This document shows, in pieces, positions 8,931-22,773 of a DNA stretch of 25,517 nucleotides. Origin of the DNA: a virus (lineage: Duplodnaviria > Caudoviricetes). The notes beneath the pieces were generated by a model. It made no database searches. It saw nothing but the letters and a program-made list of their open reading frames with translations, and had not been told where the DNA came from. The position numbers and the translations under genes are program-made. The first letter of the stretch is position 1, and every line of letters starts with the position of its first letter. The stretch lies in IMG/VR virus record IMGVR_UViG_3300014613_000098, positions 1-25,517 of that record. One strand, given 5' to 3'.

Positions 8931-8951
8931 CACCAGAATAAACCGAGACCG

Positions 8952-9596
8952 ATGAACCTCTCAGAGTTAGACCGCAGGAAATTCCCCTTCCCGATAGAAG
9001 GCACGATAAATTATCGCAAGAACTACCAAGACCTGCAACACTACCCCGAATTTATGAACTACCCCGATAAGGAAGCGGGGATAAACTTCAATATAGCCTT
9101 CAGATATGTGATGCTTCTCTATACCCCCAACACACCGCTTCTCTCTATCGCGGAATACCCCGAACGCAGACTCGCCGCGGCGCAACTATCTTTAATCAAC
9201 CAGAAGCACTATAAAGAACTCTTCTCAAGCGGAAACAGTTACGTGAACCAGATCATCATCGCTTACGTCCGAATGATGAAAAACCCAAAATGGACGAAGA
9301 TGTGCGTATTTATGGATGCGTACTATAACCAGCTCTCAAAACTGCAATCAGGGAATACTGAAGCCGGCGAAAGAACGAATAACCTTCTCGATAACATCAA
9401 TAAGATCGAGAAAAATATCGAAGACCTCACGAATGAGCTTCTTAACAGTGATCACACGCTACGCCTTGTGGACGACCTCTATCAGCGTATCGAACAGGAA
9501 CGGCTCTACACGCCGGAAGAGATAGCGCAATCAATATTCGACGGGAAGGACCCGCTTAACGGATGGACGCCATGGGCAGACGACCGAAACAAATAA
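8952..9596 (+). CDS. putative terminase small subunit
   Basis: Directly upstream of and overlapping TerL; helical, coiled-coil C-terminal half; start moved to ATG 8952 downstream of the promoter; function by position only. Confidence 0.5.
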   Translation: MNLSELDRRKFPFPIEGTINYRKNYQDLQHYPEFMNYPDKEAGINFNIAFRYVMLLYTPNTPLLSIAEYPERRLAAAQLSLINQKHYKELFSSGNSYVNQIIIAYVRMMKNPKWTKMCVFMDAYYNQLSKLQSGNTEAGERTNNLLDNINKIEKNIEDLTNELLNSDHTLRLVDDLYQRIEQERLYTPEEIAQSIFDGKDPLNGWTPWADDRNK

Positions 9597-11737
9597 CCGG
9601 AAGGACCAACCTTAACTACCAACCCCCGGATGAGGTTCTTATCCTTAACGATAACGACCCCGACCTGCAACCGATAGAGATAAAGCTTCCCTCGCCACCA
9701 CCGCTGAAATATATCGACGGATATGGCCTTCCCGCGGAGGATCAGCTCTTCACGCGACCCGTAGTTCCCGAAGCGCTGAGAAGGATCCAGCGGGATAGCG
9801 TCTCGATAAAAGAGTGCTGGCAGAAATTTGAAAGGCGACAGAATGACCTTCAGGATGAGATCCTCTGGCTAAAAAAACAATGGTTCTACCGCCTTAATGG
9901 ATACTGGTGTTTCATTAATGGGAAGCCTACGTATATCCCGCCATCCCATTATGAGTTGATCGCATTTATGAAAACACATACCGGGCTGATCCCGCAATAT
10001 CGCGAACGCAGCAGGAAGCTTCATACCGTATTCCATTGGGCTAATAACTTTACATCAGACTTTGAGGATCAGAAGTTCGATGCTATCGGGAATAGGCTTC
10101 CAAACAGGTACGGCGATAAACTGATCGATACTGGTGAGAGAAAACTTTTTGGAGTAGTATTCTCTAAAGGGCGAAGGCTCGCCGCTACGACGGATGCGAT
10201 AGCGTGGGTGAACCGTCGCATTATAACGCATAAGAACAAGTATTCCGGGATGCAGGCTCAAGACGCGGATCATGGGAAAAAATTATGGTTGAAGTACACC
10301 GCCATGTCCCGTACCATCCCATGGTTCTTTATGCCTATCTTCGATGGGGATACGGATCCGCAGACGAAGATCGTATTCCAAGACAAGGATCAGTTAGGGG
10401 AGTACGGCCTTGAAAGCAAGATCGATTACGCTAAGACGCACTCATCTTACTTCTATGACGGGGAAGAGATCTTCGACTACTACCGGACGGAATCCGGAAA
10501 GGTGATAAAGGAAGTAATCTATATGGGATGGGAAATCGTGAAGAACACTATTAGCTGGTCAAGCGGGAAGATCATCGGCGGCTTCGCCATTCACGAATCT
10601 ACTGCCGGCGAGTTTGAGAAACAAGGAGGCGCTGAATTTTTTTACCTCTGCAGAGATTCCGACTTCTACCATAGAACCGCTAACGGGCAAACGAAGTCAG
10701 GGCTCGTGAATATATTCCTTCCGAGTGATGAAGGATCGCCCGGCTTCATTGACCGGTACGGAAACTCACTAAAGGAGAAAGCGCGAAATCACTACCTGAG
10801 AGAAAGAAAACACTATCTCGATGAAAGCACCTCCGAGGGGATGATGAAGTACCAGGAACAACTCAGGCTTCACCCGCTTTCCTTCGCCGAGAGCTTCACC
10901 CAGGCCGGAATGGGAATCGGCTTTAATATGATCATCCTCGATAAAAGGATCAGTGAACTCCGGTTTCTGGAACGGGCAACGGTAAGAGGCAACTTTGACT
11001 GGGTGCGGGACTTCGGCGGTGACGTGACATTCTTTGAGAACCCGATGGGAAGGTGGTATGTGAGTAAACTCTACCCTTCTGAGATGGCGAATAAAAAATA
11101 CTGGAAAGACGGTCACTGGTATCCTCTCTTTAGAAATAAGGTTATGCACTGCTCAGACCCTTTCGGCTATGATGAGACGGAACACTTCCGCCAGTCTAAT
11201 GGTGGTGGGATAGCAATAGAGCGGAAAGACCCTTCAGATAATGAGAAAGATATAACTAAAAGCGATAAGCCGGATATTGTCTATACCTATTCCGCACGGC
11301 CAGCGACGAAAGAAGAATTCTGTGAGGATATGCTCAAGTCAACAATCTATTATGGAGGTATGCACTCCCCGGAGGTAAATATAGAAATAGTCCGGGAATA
11401 CTTCAAGCGAAAAGGTTTTGGCGGATATCTCTACTACTTCCGTGAGGGGGACGGAAGCTACCGTAAGACCGCTGGCTATTCCCTTACTAGGGACACGCCG
11501 GATAAGATCATTGGATGCGCAGTCACGTTCGTGGAATTATACGGCCATAGAATAAAACATCTCGAACTACTTCAGCAATGTAAAGACCTTAGAGGGAAAA
11601 AGGATATTAAGAATAAAGACCTCGTAGCTGTTTTCGGCGGGGCAACTCATTCTATCGAGAATGACTACCGCAGCGAGGAAATGGTTGACCACTCGGAGAG
11701 AGACCTGAGTTCGTGGTTTATTAAAAAGAATTATTGA
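9563..11737 (+). CDS. terL: terminase large subunit, crAss-like type
   Basis: RLNGYWCFINGKPTYI; Walker A-like KGRRLAATT; YDGE...TESGK Walker B region; ESTAG coupling motif; nuclease SDPFGYD...SNGGG...PEVN...DLV. Confidence 0.88.
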   Translation: MDAMGRRPKQITGRTNLNYQPPDEVLILNDNDPDLQPIEIKLPSPPPLKYIDGYGLPAEDQLFTRPVVPEALRRIQRDSVSIKECWQKFERRQNDLQDEILWLKKQWFYRLNGYWCFINGKPTYIPPSHYELIAFMKTHTGLIPQYRERSRKLHTVFHWANNFTSDFEDQKFDAIGNRLPNRYGDKLIDTGERKLFGVVFSKGRRLAATTDAIAWVNRRIITHKNKYSGMQAQDADHGKKLWLKYTAMSRTIPWFFMPIFDGDTDPQTKIVFQDKDQLGEYGLESKIDYAKTHSSYFYDGEEIFDYYRTESGKVIKEVIYMGWEIVKNTISWSSGKIIGGFAIHESTAGEFEKQGGAEFFYLCRDSDFYHRTANGQTKSGLVNIFLPSDEGSPGFIDRYGNSLKEKARNHYLRERKHYLDESTSEGMMKYQEQLRLHPLSFAESFTQAGMGIGFNMIILDKRISELRFLERATVRGNFDWVRDFGGDVTFFENPMGRWYVSKLYPSEMANKKYWKDGHWYPLFRNKVMHCSDPFGYDETEHFRQSNGGGIAIERKDPSDNEKDITKSDKPDIVYTYSARPATKEEFCEDMLKSTIYYGGMHSPEVNIEIVREYFKRKGFGGYLYYFREGDGSYRKTAGYSLTRDTPDKIIGCAVTFVELYGHRIKHLELLQQCKDLRGKKDIKNKDLVAVFGGATHSIENDYRSEEMVDHSERDLSSWFIKKNY

Positions 11738-12079: not shown

Positions 12080-12111
12080 TTGACAAGTGATAACGTGTAA
12101 ATCTATCTTTG
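12080..12111 (+). promoter_or_regulatory. promoter of putative sRNA1
   Basis: TTGACA-N18-TATCTTTG. Confidence 0.8.
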
Positions 12112-12113
12112 CT

Positions 12114-12182
12114 TCGGTTCTCGGTGTTCTCACTTCTCACACCTGATCGGGGCGGAAAACTCAAAAGCTTCGCCCCTTTTTT
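12114..12182 (+). ncRNA. putative small RNA 1 (~68 nt)
   Basis: Promoter, then hairpin GGTGT-[TCTCACTTCTC]-ACACC, then terminator GGGGCGGA...TTCGCCCC-T6; no ATG inside; 5' end estimated. Confidence 0.6.
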
Positions 12183-12188
12183 AAAATT

Positions 12189-12383
12189 ATGAAACAGCCA
12201 AGATTATATTTTTTGATCCTGATGTCTCCAGTAATTATGATTTTTATTATCATCTGGCAGGTCGGGATATTTTTTGCAGTAATTGTATCTTGCCTATTGA
12301 CAATCCCCAAAAAATTGTTATCTTTGTGCAGTGAATTTTTTCATGGTCACAGATTTTGGTTAATCACAAAGAGCCCGGAGTAA
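12189..12383 (+). CDS. possible small hydrophobic protein (64 aa)
   Basis: ATG after AAAATT; long hydrophobic stretch; its 3' half overlaps a promoter and sRNA2, so it may be spurious. Confidence 0.35.
   Translation: MKQPRLYFLILMSPVIMIFIIIWQVGIFFAVIVSCLLTIPKKLLSLCSEFFHGHRFWLITKSPE
12297..12326 (+). promoter_or_regulatory. promoter of putative sRNA2
   Basis: TTGACA-N16-TATCTTTG. Confidence 0.75.
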
Positions 12384-12395
12384 TCCGGGTTTTTT
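12330..12395 (+). ncRNA. putative small RNA 2 (~65 nt)
   Basis: Promoter followed within about 45 nt by terminator GCCCGGA-GTAA-TCCGGGT-TTTTT; 5' end estimated. Confidence 0.55.
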
Positions 12396-12451
12396 GTTTT
12401 AATCCCCTTTATTAAGTTTCGGTTTTTTGCAGATCAATTTTTTTCCCTATT

Positions 12452-13159
12452 CTATGTTGATTTTATATTTTTTTTTATTACAATGTTTCCTCGAAATAGC
12501 TTAGATAATTTATCAACTGGAAAATCCATAGGGATACTCACGGGAATATTAATAGGAATAGTATGTTTATTTTTTTTATTTTCAGATTGTAATAATTTTA
12601 TCAACTGGAAAATATCTACACCATCATCTGAATGTTCTATACTATGACATTGATCACATAATGTTATTAAATCATTAAGATTTTTATGTTCATTAAAGTG
12701 ATTTTTATATGTAAGATGATGGATATGTAAGTTATTATTGCGCCCACACATTTGACATTTATTTTTATCTCTTTTTAATACTATTTTCCGCACGAATCTC
12801 CAATAATCCGTTTTTAGAAAATCTTTATAATTTATATCTTTTAAAGCATTTTCGTTGTATTCTGTTCTTATTCCTTTCTTCTTTTTTTTATTCTTATTTT
12901 TGATTGCTCTAATATTTTTTTTTATATCATTCTTTGTAATTATACGATTTCTTTCAAGTTGGGCCAGTCTTTCGGTTTCTTCGTTCAGATAAACATTTTT
13001 TTTCCTCTTTGGATTGAATTTTCCATCAATTATTATTTTAGCCTCTTTGGATTGTTCTTTTTTTAAATTTTTAGCATATTCTCTTTTAGCTTTTATTTTA
13101 TTTGCTAATTCTGGATGGTTTCTAAGATATCTTAAATTACTTCTTTCCGCTCTATTCAT
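12452..13159 (-). CDS. HNH endonuclease with a basic N-terminal extension
   Basis: W...VLKRDKNKCQMCG...LHIHH...NLNDLITLCDQCHSIEH; very AT-rich relative to flanking genes. Confidence 0.9.
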   Translation of the reverse strand: MNRAERSNLRYLRNHPELANKIKAKREYAKNLKKEQSKEAKIIIDGKFNPKRKKNVYLNEETERLAQLERNRIITKNDIKKNIRAIKNKNKKKKKGIRTEYNENALKDINYKDFLKTDYWRFVRKIVLKRDKNKCQMCGRNNNLHIHHLTYKNHFNEHKNLNDLITLCDQCHSIEHSDDGVDIFQLIKLLQSENKKNKHTIPINIPVSIPMDFPVDKLSKLFRGNIVIKKNIKST

Positions 13160-13164
13160 ATATA

Positions 13165-13235
13165 AAAACCCCTATGTTTTCGGAGTGGCGGCTCCTACTC
13201 ACATAGAGGTTTTAATTACGTTCTCATGTCCGCCA
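13165..13235 (-). promoter_or_regulatory. structured 5' leader (attenuator/pseudoknot-like) of the HNH gene
   Basis: 13-bp outer stem with one G-U on the minus strand; inner GGAG-CCGCCA-CUCC hairpin; upstream UGGCGG complementary to the loop. Confidence 0.6.
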
Positions 13236-13246
13236 ACATCCCAAAA

Positions 13247-13277
13247 CAAAAGTACAAATATTTGCCCACTTTGTCAA
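13247..13277 (-). promoter_or_regulatory. promoter of the HNH gene
   Basis: TTGACA-N17-TACTTTTG on the minus strand. Confidence 0.75.
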
Positions 13278-13493: not shown

Positions 13494-15941
13494 ATGATTT
13501 ACAGACTTAGTGGATTCGCCAGAACGGAATACACGCGTCCTTCCGATGAGGTTCCGCCGGAATACAAAGAGACGCCGGAATACGCCAAGGAATGGGCGCA
13601 ATTCATCTATTCGCGATACCTCGCGGGAGAAACCTGCATCACACCGGATGAACAGGAAAACATCAAGCTGAACCGGGAATACGCCGCCGGGCGACAAGAC
13701 CCGGAAATATATAAAAGCAGAGTCCTTCTCGAAAGAAAACAACCGCCCATTACTACGGATGAGGATAGCGAATATACCAGTATCCTGAAACAAAGGGAAG
13801 GCTTTATTAACGTAAACTTCGAGGATATCCTCTCGCCTATCCCTAAGATCCTTCTCAATATCCAGGGGCTGATGGAAGATACCGAGCATAATATCAGCGT
13901 CTACGCCATCGACGAGAAGAGCACCACCCTAAAACAGGAACTAAAGTATAGATCCCTCTTTGAGGGACAGAACCGCCCGGTCAAGCAATATATCCAACAG
14001 ACGATGGATATGCCTCAAGACGTTCAGGAAAAAGCGTTACCGTCCTCAATGGAAGAGCTTGACCTCTGGGAAAAGATCGGATCATTCAAATTGGCGTATG
14101 AATCCGCGATGAAGGACGGCATTGATTATACTGAAAAACTCTCGAAGAACCCGAAAGTAAAGCGCGCGGTCATAGCGGATTTGATTACGAACGGCAAGGC
14201 ACTAGTCTATGTTTATAATGATATCGGTGGCGTAGCGAAATGGAAATACGCTGACTTCGCTGATCTCGTCATGGAAGGAAGTATGGAAGAGGATAACTCG
14301 GACAGTTCCTTCGGCGGGCTGCAGCAGTGGATGACGGTAGCCGACGTGAGGGCGGAACTCGCGGCGGAAGATATGAACGTCTCCGAGGACGATATTAAAT
14401 CCCTTGCTGAAAGGTGGGGATCGTTCAATGATAATAAGGTTTCATACGGCACGGAACGCAAGAGAAGTTCATTCCCTTATGATAATATCCGCGTGCCGGT
14501 GATGTTGAATTACTGGAAAACGGTAAATACTTCATTCAAAACGTATCACGTAGATGGGAAGGTCTACAATGAAAATTGGCGTAAGAAAGAAAATGGTCGC
14601 TATCGCCTTCCCAGAGCCTACGATACGGAATATAGGAATACAAAAAGGGAAGACCTGCGGACGCTCTACTCAACGAAATGGATCATAGGAAGCGATATCG
14701 TCTGGAAATACGGGCAGGTTAAGGATATTCCATTTGATTACCACGATAAGGACGTGAAGCTTCCTTTTATGCTTTTTAAGATTCCGGGGAAGTCCATAGT
14801 GGAAGCTATGCGTCCTATCGAGGATGAGATCGTTCTTACTTATCTCGATCTTCAGAATGCCCGCGCCCAGAGCGCACCTACAGGCCTGAAGATAGAGATC
14901 AGCTCAATCACGAACATTCCCATGGGTAAGGGCAAGGTTATGCACCCATTGGATGTGCTAACGATTTACCAGCAGACCGGAAGATTACTTTACCGGTTAG
15001 CGCCGCCTGAACCCAGCAACCCGATAGGAAGTCAAAACCCGGTAGATACGCTCCTTGGCGGGTACGACGCTTCTATTATTAGCGCCGTGAAATCACTTGA
15101 ATTGTATTACCGGGAACTGGAAAGGATCACAGGCATCAGCGACTTCTCAACAGGTAGAAGCCCGGTCTCGGAACAAGGACTTGGCGTGACGCAGATAGCA
15201 CTCGCGACAACGAATAACACGCTCAGGCCGATCTACACGGGCTACATTACGATCAAAGAAAACGCGGCTAAGTACGCGGCGATAAAGATTCAGAGCGTGA
15301 TCATCAACGCGAAAGGCGAAGAATGCCCTTATTATAACATCCTCGGCCCGGCAAAGTTCAACGCGATTAAGAGCGCGGGCGGATTCCCGCCAGTATACTG
15401 GGGGATAGAAATTTCAGCAAAACTGGATAGCCTCACTAAGCAAGCTATCCTCGAAGCGGCGAGAAGCGCTCTCGCTGTAGGAAAGGATGGGGTGCCTATA
15501 CTCACCTATAGCGAATATATTTTCATAGTTGAGAAGATTAATACCTCTGAAAACCTCGCCGATGTCCGCGCATGGATTCAGTACAAGGAGCAACAGGCAG
15601 AGATAAGATCATTCCAGCGGGCGCAGGCGACACAAACCATGATTGGCGAACAGACGCGGGCGACGAACGAACAGAAGGCGCAGGAGGAGATAGCTAAGAC
15701 GGCTATAGAAGCGAAGAAGTCCAAGGAAGAGAAAGAGCTGGATCACAGGCTTGAGACCGAGACGAAGCTCTTAGATCACTTCTTGAAGATTAAACTATTG
15801 GAGGCTGAAGGAAAAGCGATAAAAAAAGAGGAACCGGAAATAGGGAAAACACGGGCCGAAAGGGCGGGAATTAACCAGCCGGTATTGCCCGCAGGTGGAA
15901 CGGAAGAGTTAATGCCGGTTGCACAAACACAACCAACGTGA
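13494..15941 (+). CDS. portal protein, crAss-like type
   Basis: 815 aa; NREYAAGRQD, SPIPKIL, VYAIDEKS, YQQTG, LERITGISD patterns; helical C-terminus; between TerL and capsid. Confidence 0.85.
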   Translation: MIYRLSGFARTEYTRPSDEVPPEYKETPEYAKEWAQFIYSRYLAGETCITPDEQENIKLNREYAAGRQDPEIYKSRVLLERKQPPITTDEDSEYTSILKQREGFINVNFEDILSPIPKILLNIQGLMEDTEHNISVYAIDEKSTTLKQELKYRSLFEGQNRPVKQYIQQTMDMPQDVQEKALPSSMEELDLWEKIGSFKLAYESAMKDGIDYTEKLSKNPKVKRAVIADLITNGKALVYVYNDIGGVAKWKYADFADLVMEGSMEEDNSDSSFGGLQQWMTVADVRAELAAEDMNVSEDDIKSLAERWGSFNDNKVSYGTERKRSSFPYDNIRVPVMLNYWKTVNTSFKTYHVDGKVYNENWRKKENGRYRLPRAYDTEYRNTKREDLRTLYSTKWIIGSDIVWKYGQVKDIPFDYHDKDVKLPFMLFKIPGKSIVEAMRPIEDEIVLTYLDLQNARAQSAPTGLKIEISSITNIPMGKGKVMHPLDVLTIYQQTGRLLYRLAPPEPSNPIGSQNPVDTLLGGYDASIISAVKSLELYYRELERITGISDFSTGRSPVSEQGLGVTQIALATTNNTLRPIYTGYITIKENAAKYAAIKIQSVIINAKGEECPYYNILGPAKFNAIKSAGGFPPVYWGIEISAKLDSLTKQAILEAARSALAVGKDGVPILTYSEYIFIVEKINTSENLADVRAWIQYKEQQAEIRSFQRAQATQTMIGEQTRATNEQKAQEEIAKTAIEAKKSKEEKELDHRLETETKLLDHFLKIKLLEAEGKAIKKEEPEIGKTRAERAGINQPVLPAGGTEELMPVAQTQPT

Positions 15942-17279: not shown

Positions 17280-18689
17280 ATGGCAGCTACAGATGCTAAC
17301 ACCTATCCAGGTGCGGGGGTCTTGAGTGAAACGATTATGACGTTTCTCGACTACCTAAAACCGCAGTACTGGAATGAGATAGCCGCACGATTCGGATATC
17401 AGTTCGATGGCGTGTGGCAGATTCTCGGCTCAATGGGCAGGGAAGAACCTGTCGGAGCAGATGAATTCTACGCTTACGAAGAAAACCGTTATCGCCGGTC
17501 TATCAGCGGAACGCCTGACACTATTACTCCTGGCGTTGGGGGAACGGTTGTGTTTACGCTTGACGCCGCAGATCACGAACAGAGCGGGGCAATATCATTC
17601 CCAAGAAAATGGGATGAGGTGCTTACCACTACCGAAGTCCCCTGCTGGATCTCAGCGAAGGACGTTACCACGCCTGATGCGCACACGATCACGATCACTC
17701 CTGTATTTGCCACGGATAACATCGGGAACCTGACCGGCAAGAAGCTGATCATCTTCTCTGGTGCTAAAGCCGCGGGGATGTCACAGGGTGATTCTACCTT
17801 TGTCGGGGCGACAAAACGCAAGTTCGTCGCGCAGATCATCCCGGAAGATGTCGGAGTGGAAGGAACACAGCTCGTGAATACTGAATGGTTCAACGTCATC
17901 GACGATGGACGTTCCATCAGTGGATGGTATAACCCCGGCCTTATGCGGGCAGAATACTTTCTGAACAGTAAGATCGATGGTGCCTTTACCTGGGGTAAGG
18001 AAAATACGAACTCCGTTACGCAGACTACCGCTCGCGGATCTGTTAACCTAGTCAAAACTACCAAAGGCATGCTTCAATGGATCACTGAACTCGGCAAGAG
18101 CATGTCTATCACCGGTGGCGCTTATGCCCCGGCCGACCTGGATACGACAGCCCTTCACATGAAACAGAATGGCGTAACTTCCGGCGTTGCTATCGCTTTT
18201 TGTGGGTCTAACGCGCTTATTGACATCCGCAACTCGTTGAAGGACCTGATCGATACTAACGGAACGGACTACACAAAAGTCCTGAAGACCATGTTCGGTG
18301 GTGCAAGCGTAGAACTTGGGCTGAGCATCAACTTCAAGACTTATACCTCCGGAGATATGACTTATATCTTCAAGGAAGTTCCTGCATGGATTGATCCCAC
18401 TACTTACGGTGAGACCGGATTCAATATGTCAAAGCACGTCGTCATAGGCCCGCTTGAGATGTATCCCAACCCGGATAACCCCGGCAAGATGCTTCCGAAC
18501 ATCGGGATGCGTTATCGTGCCAAAGGCAATTACAGCCGTAGAGCTGAAGTGTGGAACACCGCAGGAGCTGGTGGAGCCGCTTACTACCCATACAATACGG
18601 ATATTGACGAGGTTATGCTTCACTTGCGTAGCCACGTGATGTTCGTGATGCTGAAGGCGAATCGTTGGATCATCCAGCGCGGAACCTGA
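17280..18689 (+). CDS. major capsid protein, crAss-like type
   Basis: 469 aa; EFYAYEENR, TTKGMLQWI, GMRYR, HLRSH patterns; followed by a strong terminator. Confidence 0.85.
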   Translation: MAATDANTYPGAGVLSETIMTFLDYLKPQYWNEIAARFGYQFDGVWQILGSMGREEPVGADEFYAYEENRYRRSISGTPDTITPGVGGTVVFTLDAADHEQSGAISFPRKWDEVLTTTEVPCWISAKDVTTPDAHTITITPVFATDNIGNLTGKKLIIFSGAKAAGMSQGDSTFVGATKRKFVAQIIPEDVGVEGTQLVNTEWFNVIDDGRSISGWYNPGLMRAEYFLNSKIDGAFTWGKENTNSVTQTTARGSVNLVKTTKGMLQWITELGKSMSITGGAYAPADLDTTALHMKQNGVTSGVAIAFCGSNALIDIRNSLKDLIDTNGTDYTKVLKTMFGGASVELGLSINFKTYTSGDMTYIFKEVPAWIDPTTYGETGFNMSKHVVIGPLEMYPNPDNPGKMLPNIGMRYRAKGNYSRRAEVWNTAGAGGAAYYPYNTDIDEVMLHLRSHVMFVMLKANRWIIQRGT

Positions 18690-18700
18690 TAAACCTAACC

Positions 18701-18733
18701 AGGGAAGTCCCTTCGGGGGCTTCCCTTTATTTT
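18701..18733 (+). terminator. intrinsic terminator with a cUUCGg tetraloop
   Basis: AGGGAAGTCCC-TTCG-GGGGCTTCCCT-TTATTTT. Confidence 0.9.
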
Positions 18734-18770
18734 CAAAACGAGAAGTGAGAACCTTTAAAACAAAAGAGCT

Positions 18771-19760
18771 ATGTTAATCGTAAACGGAAAAAAACTGAAC
18801 CTGAATGAGATCGAGGACGCCTTCGTGAAGGATGTCTATATCCCCTCCATGGAAGCATTAAAGAAGCTGGATCAGAAGAATTACACCTTCGCAGAGCCGG
18901 AGAATAAGATAAGTATCAACCACGAGGGGGTGGAAGAACACTCTTCGGGTACATACGTGAGGATGAGGCAAAACTGCTCATTCATCTTGAACGGAAATAA
19001 GCCGGAGAGTAAAACCATTGGATATGACGTGAGGTATTTCGAGACATCCAGTTATGACTCGAAGAACAACGAGGTCTTTACCCCCGTCTTATGGAATTTC
19101 CCTGGAACGGCCTTACAGGTGAAGATGAACGAGAAGCCCGACCTATTATGGTTTCTTATTTTCGCATCCCCCTCGGTAGAGCCTATAGATGGCCTTGAAA
19201 AATTCCAGAACCAGTTGCGCGAACCGGTCGTTCAGTACAAACTTCAGAACAGCGCCGCGGATGCGGAGATAACACTTCGCCAAAAAAGGAGACTGCAGAA
19301 TGTGTCGAACCTCATCCTTGACGAGGAAGGACTTGCGGGGGCGGATCTGAAGGTTGCCGCGCGGAATTTCAACATCTCAGTAACAGACCTGAGCGAGGAT
19401 CAGATCAGGGTCACGCTCGAGGAGCGGATCATGAGAAGGAATAAGCATACCGGCAAATACGACTGGAAACTGATTGAATCCTTCGAGGAAATCATCCGGG
19501 AACGCACAGGGAAATCTTCAAGTATTTCCGATATCAACCTTATGGGACATGTCAAGTCATTGATCGCGGAAGCTCAGGAACTGAAGATTTTGACGAACAA
19601 GAAAGGCGTCGGCAACAGAATCGAATGGTGGCTTAATGAGAATCTTATCACGAAACACGCACCGTCGATGAATAAGGATGATGAAATCTTAAAAGTATTT
19701 ATGCAGGAAGAGGAGGAGAGAACCAAACTTGAGAAAGCAGTAAGAGAGAAAAAAATGTAA
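18771..19760 (+). CDS. hypothetical protein downstream of MCP (329 aa)
   Basis: Long ORF in the position of the conserved post-capsid gene of crAss-like phages; function unknown. Confidence 0.8.
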   Translation: MLIVNGKKLNLNEIEDAFVKDVYIPSMEALKKLDQKNYTFAEPENKISINHEGVEEHSSGTYVRMRQNCSFILNGNKPESKTIGYDVRYFETSSYDSKNNEVFTPVLWNFPGTALQVKMNEKPDLLWFLIFASPSVEPIDGLEKFQNQLREPVVQYKLQNSAADAEITLRQKRRLQNVSNLILDEEGLAGADLKVAARNFNISVTDLSEDQIRVTLEERIMRRNKHTGKYDWKLIESFEEIIRERTGKSSSISDINLMGHVKSLIAEAQELKILTNKKGVGNRIEWWLNENLITKHAPSMNKDDEILKVFMQEEEERTKLEKAVREKKM

Positions 19761-21450: not shown

Positions 21451-22773
21451 ATGAGAACAATAAAATTATTCTTTCTGGCGACGTTGCTCTTTTGCGCAAC
21501 TATTAGCGTCGCACAGTATAAGTATACCACGAAGTACGTAAATCTCGCTACTGCGACTTCGCCCGTCGCGTTAAACGTGACGTCCGACGTAGGCGTTGTA
21601 TTCGCGAGCGGGACAAAAAGCCTTTCCTCAAACTTTGAGATCACAGTAACGGGCTCGCCCTCTGACGGGCGAAATTTCATCGTGTTCTGGGACGGAACGG
21701 CGGTGACGCTCAACGGAAATTACGTTACTGTTTTCGGCAAACGGTTCCGCGATGAACAGGCAACGGCTAAGATGATGGCGTGGGCTATCTACAGAGGGAG
21801 CCTCGCGGTATGGGACGTGAGGGTATTTCAGGATATGAACGCTTATCATTGGGTTACTAAGACTAATTTAGCCCTTGATATTTTTGATGAGGCGACAATA
21901 ACGTTTGATACCGTAGGAGGAGTTAAAGTAAAAGACGGCGGGATTACAAACCCTCAAGTAGGGGCTTCCGCAGCAATAGCTTATTCTAAACTTAACCTTG
22001 TAGATGCTATCCTGGCCGCTGACATAAACGCTTCAGCGGGAATACCATATTCAAAATTAAGCTTGACAAATTCCTTACTCGCAGCAGACATTTTTGCAAC
22101 TGCGAATATTCCTTATTCAAAACTTCTTTTAACAAATTCCTTATTAAATGCAGATATTAATTCATCCGCGGCTATAGCATATAGTAAACTTAATCTTACA
22201 GGGGCTATTCTTGCGGCTGATATTACTGCCGCGGCCGGGATACCGTACTCAAAATTAACTCTTACGGGAAGTATCTTAAACGCGGACATCGCAACCGGCG
22301 CGGTTATAGGATGGAATAAGATGGCGTTGCTGACCGCCTCGAAAGCGCTTGTATCGGATGGGAGCGGATACGTAACTACGAGCGTTACAGCGACAGAACT
22401 CGGTTATTTATCCGGCGCCACTTCAAATATTCAGACTCAGATTACCGCAGCCAGCGCAGCGGCAACTTATACGAAGAGCTCTGCCGCGACTATCGTTCTT
22501 GACGGAACGGCTACCGAGGTTTATATTCTTAATTGTACGGCAAATAATATAGCCCTTACGCTGCCCGCAGCAAGTGATTTCCCCGCAAATCGTTCGATTC
22601 AATTTATAAAAAAGTTTTCCGGCGGAGTATTTAATATTGTTATTAGTCCGGCCGGGGCGGACTTATTGGAAGATACAGCCGCGACAGACGTGGCAAGTAT
22701 TACTATGGGCGCGGCAACCGGCTCAACGCTAAGGCTTGTCACTAACGGAGTAGATCATTGGTATTCATATTAA
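21451..22773 (+). CDS. fibre-like protein with signal peptide and 22-aa repeats
   Basis: MRTIKLFFLATLLFCATISVA|Q; ILxADIxxxAxIxYSKLxL repeats; KALVSDGSG...TELGYLSGATSNIQTQI; C-terminal TLPAA...LVTNGVDHW fibre domain. Confidence 0.8.
   Translation: MRTIKLFFLATLLFCATISVAQYKYTTKYVNLATATSPVALNVTSDVGVVFASGTKSLSSNFEITVTGSPSDGRNFIVFWDGTAVTLNGNYVTVFGKRFRDEQATAKMMAWAIYRGSLAVWDVRVFQDMNAYHWVTKTNLALDIFDEATITFDTVGGVKVKDGGITNPQVGASAAIAYSKLNLVDAILAADINASAGIPYSKLSLTNSLLAADIFATANIPYSKLLLTNSLLNADINSSAAIAYSKLNLTGAILAADITAAAGIPYSKLTLTGSILNADIATGAVIGWNKMALLTASKALVSDGSGYVTTSVTATELGYLSGATSNIQTQITAASAAATYTKSSAATIVLDGTATEVYILNCTANNIALTLPAASDFPANRSIQFIKKFSGGVFNIVISPAGADLLEDTAATDVASITMGAATGSTLRLVTNGVDHWYSY
21944..22330 (+). 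repeat. 66-bp (22-aa) degenerate coding repeat, about 6 copies
   Basis: YSKL recurs every 66 nt (e.g. 21982, 22048) five times, plus one WNKM variant. Confidence 0.9.

Follow-up and report, generated by a model that had tools for sequence, protein, structure and literature searches.

Does a short transcription unit between the terminase and portal genes of a phage produce an RNA that acts on the phage's own late messages? The question is raised by positions 12080-12182 of a linear virus record of 25,517 nt, hereafter the window, where the initial annotation had read a promoter, a short body without ATG, and a terminator, and from which it had proposed an antisense RNA tuning the translation of morphogenesis genes.

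A predicted small-RNA unit upstream of the portal gene

All coordinates of the unit were verified in the sequence, and reading the window sequence revealed no ATG between promoter and terminator. The parts of the unit and the genes that flank it are the following.

9563-11737 (+): terminase large subunit gene, TerL (PHROG 6681, E 1.5e-46)
12080-12111 (+): Bacteroidota-type promoter, TTGACA-N18-TATCTTTG, with TTGACA at 12080-12085 and TATCTTTG at 12104-12111
12115-12182 (+): predicted sRNA of ~67 nt, its 5' end placed by prediction ~4 nt past the box
12116-12124 (+): 5' pairing block of GUUCU type, predicted to pair at -6 to -1 and -18 to -17 of the target start
12126-12138 (+): main seed, exactly complementary to the target leader over 13 nt and largely within the loop of a hairpin
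12149-12182 (+): intrinsic terminator with an 8-bp GC-rich stem (12149-12156/12169-12176), a 12-nt loop, and T6 at 12177-12182
13494-15941 (+): portal gene, sharing 21-22% identity with its counterparts in Cellulophaga phages Calle_1 and phi38:1, with the unit upstream in 4/4 phages

The TATCTTTG box corresponds to what we take to be the Bacteroidota primary-sigma element, TAnnTTTG. The TTGAC-N19-TAnnTTTG form of the unit promoter recurs before the portal (13381) and scaffold (15973) genes, and TTGAC-N17..19-TAnnTTTG sites precede the TerS, portal, and scaffold genes of the window. Since the unit shares its promoter form with the portal and scaffold genes, it would be transcribed by the host primary-sigma RNA polymerase. 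The predicted sRNA has a fold z of -2.26, and its terminator, with a loop of 12 nt, was not caught by a simple terminator scan whose loop limit was 8. Rfam gave no match on 12080-12182 at E values up to 5 and none on the unit up to E 1 in a 461-nt search, which agrees with the initial annotation, where the RNA was not recognised as a described family.

Strain contigs from three other studies have 0 listed substitutions in 12113-12181 and 9 in 12184-12254. Two listed changes fall in the unit promoter, both at nonconsensus positions, and the sequence upstream of this promoter diverges in two of the three contigs. The three contigs share most of their changes, have a depth of 3.8-5.5, and only 10 of the 19 differing letters of X8 are listed; the apparent constancy of the RNA body at the strain level is supporting, not decisive.

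Predicted pairing with the leader of the post-capsid gene

The main seed points to a late region of the genome, in which a probable scaffold gene lies between the portal and major capsid genes.

17280-18689 (+): major capsid protein gene (PHROG 13704, virion structural protein; relatives carry PF17236), after the portal and scaffold genes
18701-18733 (+): terminator following the major capsid gene, whose read-through likely yields the target mRNA
18740-18752 (+): target site, -31 to -19 relative to the ATG at 18771
18771-19760 (+): target gene, coding for a 329-aa homolog of phi38:1 gp094 without a Pfam or PHROG family

As annotated, 12126-12138 is the exact reverse complement of 18740-18752, between the capsid terminator and the ATG at 18771, and it is the longest such match in the window. 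Taken alone the match is only mildly unusual, and it would count for little if many windows were scanned, because 55 of 2,000 dinucleotide shuffles of the RNA yield a 13-nt complement somewhere on the + strand. The whole predicted duplex, at -26.2 kcal/mol, is reached by 1/1000 shuffled RNAs and by 0/1000 shuffled leaders, figures to be read with the limit that this RNA-leader pair was chosen post hoc. Among the 31 start regions of the window, the target start ranks first with and without opening costs, a place that shuffled tracts give it in 5 of 100 trials. The helix of 13 bp occupies -31 to -19 and leaves -16 to -7 unpaired, these positions depending on start codons and an RNA 5' end that are themselves predictions. 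The seed was also said to be displayed in a loop: 11 of its 13 bases indeed lie in the loop of a GGTGT/ACACC stem in the window, but this display is not conserved among relatives, the pairing tract being predicted to be single stranded in two of three and to form a weak 4-bp stem in the third.

The unit and its predicted pairing in related phages

Capsid and portal searches placed the window in a close clade with 100/100 support, together with L002, L009, L010, L011, and L012; L013, absent from the tree, is close to L009 by its proteins. L010, L012, L013, and L014 do not span the TerL-portal interval, and the relatives that cover both the pre-portal region and the post-capsid leader are L002, L009, and L011 only, with capsid identities to the window of 61%, 53%, and 56%, respectively. 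L008, L020, and L065, which repeat L002 (equivalent also to G001), and L007, which is the window itself, were not counted.

All three relatives carry a unit made of a promoter, a pyrimidine tract, and a terminator upstream of the portal gene, directly before the portal promoter or the gene itself. The TTGAC-to-box spacing is an identical 19 nt in the three, and each pyrimidine-rich tract begins with a GUUCU block and is followed by a GC hairpin and a T run. In L002 the box reads TTACTTTG, outside our first promoter pattern, and the unit was located by reading the interval; in L009 the unit directly follows the TerL stop. A separate downstream portal promoter is present in the window, L002, and L009. 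In L011 (6260-6376), the portal ATG lies ~20 nt past the terminator, and portal expression would require read-through, because no promoter other than that of the sRNA was found before that gene. The signals of an sRNA gene (promoter, no open reading frame, intrinsic terminator) are thus present in 4/4 phages, as signals in sequence, not activity.

Similarity searches with the unit itself recovered little, the tracts of the relatives being too diverged for BLAST: there was no match in G001 or in 50,697 phage records, and among 401 sampled Bacteroidota genomes seven had short matches only, six of them to the terminator. An exact 19-nt scan found 0 loci, single-protein scans of viral contigs found 0 loci with TerL and 1 with the capsid, and scans of genome contigs found 0 loci with the capsid alignment and 1 distant locus with the portal alignment. 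A degenerate promoter-plus-seed scan returned 118 loci, one of which (L065, an already-known relative) is in this phage group. No such unit was seen before the portal gene in eleven distant loci; L028 was screened separately from these. Two distant relatives have an sRNA-like unit after TerL, and neither pairs in this way with its post-capsid leader (L016, 61/1000 shuffles, rank 19/63; L030, 738/1000 shuffles, rank 80/87), so the pairing appears confined to the close clade. One distant relative was found in a Bacteroidetes metagenome-assembled genome (MAG), which, with the promoter form and the portal similarity to phi38:1, makes a Bacteroidota phage distantly related to phi38:1 the most likely assignment.

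For the comparative test, both the target (-45 to +15 of the gene after the capsid gene) and the place of the unit were fixed beforehand. Values for the three relatives are given below.

L002: own-leader duplex -20.1 kcal/mol, reached by 15/1000 shuffled RNAs and 4/1000 shuffled leaders; target rank 1/93 (whole 73.6-kb G001), 1 after opening costs; target first in 2/100 shuffled tracts
L009: -21.1 kcal/mol, 8/1000 and 19/1000; rank 1/5, 2 after opening costs, a rank that carries no weight since 52/100 shuffled tracts also put the target first
L011: -17.2 kcal/mol, 1/1000 and 0/1000; rank 1/21, 1 after opening costs; target first in 5/100 shuffled tracts

Multiplied by hand, the shuffled-tract figures of the three relatives give ~5 in 10,000, an optimistic value, the phages being kin; with only three relatives in one clade, shared ancestry inflates their apparent independence. 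Consecutive pairs number 13 in the window, 10 in L002, and 11 in L011, with one G-U each in L002 and L011; L009 has three blocks of 4-7. In the relatives the block corresponding to 12116-12124 pairs within -13 to -5 of the target start. Beyond a shared GAG anchor the leaders differ from phage to phage, and the RNAs follow. Assigning each of the four RNAs to its own leader is the best of 24 permutations (-84.6, the runner-up at -81.7 being 2.9 kcal/mol worse), and 1 of 24 is the smallest p value that four sequences can reach. Across the four sequences, the window and L011 RNAs show a clear preference for their own leader, whereas the distinction between L002 and L009 is weak: the L002 RNA reaches -20.0 kcal/mol on the L009 leader and -20.1 on its own, and with the start-region sets of L009 and L011 it likewise puts the target at rank 1. 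Energies between non-own partners go as low as -12 to -20 kcal/mol. A short, imperfect complementarity to a distant mRNA start region is above chance and conserved, and the predicted RNA and its matching leader occur together in every one of the three close relatives that cover both places. We consider a functional pairing of some kind between the RNA and the post-capsid leader highly probable on this comparative evidence.

Other proposed targets

Two further pairings had been proposed, and each is present as a string of letters. The match to the TerS leader (8942-8952), formed by the 5' pairing block at 12116-12124, exists with one bulge, and its strength is within chance (76/1000 shuffles), with the TerS start ranking 2/31 among the start regions of the window; in the relative G001, none of five candidate TerS starts outdoes shuffled controls (107-837 of 1000). 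The 8-nt match at the start of the fibre gene (21452-21459) is likewise within chance (75/1000 shuffles), that start ranking 19/31. We therefore rejected TerS and fibre as secondary targets, and of the proposed tuning of morphogenesis genes there remains the part concerning the leader at 18771, whose pairing is kept in 3/3 relatives.

The leader of the scaffold gene gave mixed results against shuffles, 0/1000 in L009, 55/1000 in L011, 414/1000 in the window, and 472/1000 in L002. In L009 (4803-4877), the RNA pairs with the scaffold-gene leader as strongly as with the main target (-20.4 kcal/mol).

Other readings of the two sites were also discarded. The purine tract of the target leader is not a Shine-Dalgarno sequence, lying 16-31 nt upstream of the ATG; a minus-strand decoy is contradicted by the promoter and T tract on the + strand in 4/4 phages; and the two sites are not exact inverted repeats in relatives, as a DNA-level inverted repeat would be.

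The target protein

The target protein is widespread, with 257 cluster representatives at E values up to 0.001 and viral look-alike clusters in Atlas, and Pfam and PHROG searches on 100 aligned members gave no family beyond scattered weak matches. It matches phi38:1 gp094 with a profile probability of 95.7% (E 1e-8), and gp094 also follows a capsid gene, annotated as hypothetical among structural neighbours. A structural model (mean pLDDT 80.5, pTM 0.52) matched, by Foldseek, uncharacterised proteins of Tenacibaculum phage Gundel_1, phi14:2, and ProJPt-Bp1 (E 1e-4 to 3e-2). The phi14:2 match is S0A085 (E 6.4e-3), whose 294 aa are also the length of g090. The g090 gene is syntenic, after the major head protein gene, and lacks the proteomics note that many neighbours carry; the profile probability between the target and g090 is only 6.5%. 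The target protein itself is probably not a virion component.

A sequence search of the PDB with the target gave a best E of 0.14, to the Siz1 entry 2rnn, of which the matched part is presumably the SAP domain, and a Foldseek comparison of the model with the PDB gave 0 matches with E of 0.001 or lower; a SAP/HeH-like domain in the middle of the protein is suggested as a weak lead only. In crAss-like phages, a figure legend places the label "gene75" after the major capsid protein (PMC7886860). The target probably belongs to this crAss-like "gene 75" family, g090 being equated with it by our own reasoning.

Comparison with described small RNAs

Among the closest described systems is the c4 antisense RNA of phages P1 and P7, which we take to be RF01695 and whose Rfam model gave no match on the unit in either of the searches above. 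As described in a recent review, c4 is likewise phage encoded, with short blocks of the trans type that act near the initiation site of a gene of its own phage and with phage-specific sequences (PMC12197685). It differs in targeting an antirepressor message and in depending on a folded structure, whereas the RNA of the window would target a late post-capsid gene 6.6 kb away, has a mostly unstructured tract, and possesses its own promoter and terminator. The top target, a post-capsid gene, has no match to an antirepressor family.

FopS/GibS of Bacteroides (RF04319) resembles the predicted RNA in its 65-70 nt, its primary-sigma promoter, its single-stranded 5' seed followed by a terminator, and its repression at start regions, but its seed is anti-start-codon and it acts on host PUL mRNAs (PMC11697453). 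The FopS model did not match the unit, its sole match, below threshold, being on the neighbour at 12331-12403. StxS of Shiga-toxin phages is also a short RNA made from a late promoter with a nearby terminator and represses a gene of a late transcript, but it arises in lambdoid phages as a by-product of Q antitermination, is processed, and is bound by Hfq (PMC7547250). Here, three of four phages have a separate promoter for the portal gene, and a layout in which the unit is the sole entry fits L011 only. SviR of the Vibrio satellite PLE is a trans-acting sRNA that lowers translation of a late capsid-region gene by occluding its initiation site (bioRxiv 10.1101/2022.04.08.487710); it is made by a satellite against its helper phage, whereas here RNA and target reside in one phage genome. 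The unit likely represents a new family of phage trans-acting sRNA.

Neighbouring and unrelated RNAs

The window holds a second promoter-sRNA-terminator unit (12297-12398, +) that aligns along the FopS model RF04319 and keeps the anti-start-codon seed; the match, at 12331-12403, scores 34 bits for a cutoff of 56 (E 0.0022 in the 461-nt search). Similar FopS-like units occur in L016, G002, and L019, and G002, a distant phage, has four paralogous promoter-sRNA-terminator units (L153:6829, L153:2017, L154:6812, and L154:7968), two of them FopS-like. A divergent promoter (~12038-11950, -) opens a transcript whose start resembles the 5' part of the FopS-like unit and which may represent a third small RNA or lead into a short open reading frame. 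Farther downstream, an HNH gene (12452-13269) has its own minus-strand promoter (~13281) and a hairpin leader (13164-13213, weak TEG147 match); 467 other letters replace its region in run X6, which marks this region as an apparent mobile slot between the sRNAs and the portal promoter. G001 also has a promoter followed by an ATG-free stretch (L005:14420-14560), whose 5' end carries a 10-nt complement to the post-capsid leader, possibly a second regulator or chance.

Of the 118 loci of the degenerate scan, 27 represent an unrelated family of structured RNAs of ~100 nt behind a Bacteroidota promoter, in which the first hairpin has a loop complementary to the terminator loop and 3' arm, the two changing together. 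Rfam searches on seven members returned one match, below threshold. The loci are as follows.

L036, L047, L062, L066, L091, L094, L095, L097, L099, L101-L103, L107, L108: RNA family of ~100 nt
L118, L128, L129, L133-L135, L139-L141, L145-L147, L149: same family, remaining loci

Proposed mechanism and alternatives

Our favoured interpretation, which we hold to be reasonably probable, is that the unit makes a trans-acting sRNA of ~67 nt that represses translation of the post-capsid gene. The pyrimidine-rich 5' half of the RNA would pair with the purine-rich post-capsid leader, and the resulting two-block duplex, 16-21 bp within -31 to -1, would occlude the initiation region. No promoter-like site was found within 700 nt upstream of the target ATG in 4/4 phages, and the target message is therefore likely a product of read-through at the capsid terminator, which would make it scarcer than the capsid mRNA. 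An abundant short RNA, made from a strong host-type promoter and facing a scarce read-through message, would set a threshold on the target protein, so that this probably nonvirion protein may be kept low until late transcription outruns the RNA. Adenines at -3, -6, -12, and -13 promote initiation in Flavobacterium (PMC6847099), and Bacteroides sRNAs offer a precedent for start-region occlusion (PMC11697453). The predicted duplex covers A-12 in 3/3 relatives and A-6 in the window and L011. Since the predicted fold leaves the start region largely accessible when the RNA is absent (mean unpaired probability of 0.58-0.76 over -15 to +10), occlusion appears likelier than activation.

The same RNA and pairing might instead lead to processing or activation, the duplex guiding a nuclease cut that separates the capsid and downstream messages or opening a cis hairpin between the terminator's U tract and the purine tract. 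The site begins ~13 nt past the stem of the capsid terminator, the strongest helix of the window lies upstream of the usual initiation determinants, and in the predicted folds of the leader U tract and purine tract pair with each other in 4/4 phages, as a 10-bp hairpin in L009; yet the start region is already largely open, and pairing over A-12 in all relatives fits occlusion better than release, so that we judge this outcome unlikely. We find it quite unlikely that the unit is mainly a cis signal, either a promoter-proximal terminator awaiting antitermination, as at lambda pR'/tR', or the end of the terminase message, with the RNA as a by-product. StxS is such a by-product (PMC7547250), and the layouts of L011, where the terminator of the only promoter found ends ~20 nt before the portal ATG, and of L009, where the unit abuts the TerL stop, would suit this role. 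Against it, the portal genes of the window, L002, and L009 have a downstream promoter of their own, and a cis role leaves unexplained why the tract tracks one distant leader; moreover, cis and pairing roles can coexist, as they do for StxS.

The fit to the phage's own leader could also reflect a shared purine-rich style of leaders, selection having acted instead on pairing with host mRNAs or with competing phages. For this speak the resemblance of the neighbouring unit to FopS, whose targets are start regions of the host, and the non-own pairings that reach -12 to -20 kcal/mol. CU-rich seeds are generic. Composition-preserving shuffles, however, rank the target first in just 2-5 of 100 trials in three of the four phages, and the RNAs of the window and of L011 have a clear preference for their own leader, which makes this reading improbable. 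That the unit produces no functional RNA, its promoter and terminator being remnants of a variable gene slot and the complementarity a coincidence, seems to us very improbable: the TerL-portal interval is indeed variable (the HNH gene is replaced in X6, and L002 and L011 have other genes), and a 13-nt match arises in some shuffles, but a syntenic unit whose top-ranked pairing falls on the orthologous leader occurs in 3/3 relatives, with target and place preset. Translational repression of the post-capsid gene is thus the reading we retain.

Significance for phages of Bacteroidota

Bacteroidota ribosomes are described as ignoring Shine-Dalgarno sequences. Trans-acting sRNAs have been described in phages of proteobacteria, cyanobacteria, and staphylococci, mostly with host genes or lysogeny control as targets. 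In the 2025 review, "Bacteroid" and "capsid" each have 0 occurrences (PMC12197685). Our literature search, whose coverage left out most subscription journals, found no description of this RNA. What the unit would add is a single, named, co-conserved target of the phage's own genome in the late region of a Bacteroidota phage. The gene concerned is widespread, and its dose appears to be controlled by the phage. G001 encodes a ParB-like protein (L006:3624-4586) and no integrase among the 53 proteins scanned, and a temperate, carrier, or plasmid-like prophage state of this phage is possible.

More tentatively, and with considerable doubt, the clade related to phi38:1 and crAss, with its late genes placed behind host-type promoters, may employ a dedicated sRNA as a timer that sets a threshold for one conserved, nonvirion post-capsid protein, possibly one that binds nucleic acid by means of the SAP/HeH-like middle domain. 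If this proposal is true, the clade would provide a Shine-Dalgarno-independent case in which a phage silences one of its late genes in trans, and the crAss-like "gene 75" product would be a dose-critical late switch.
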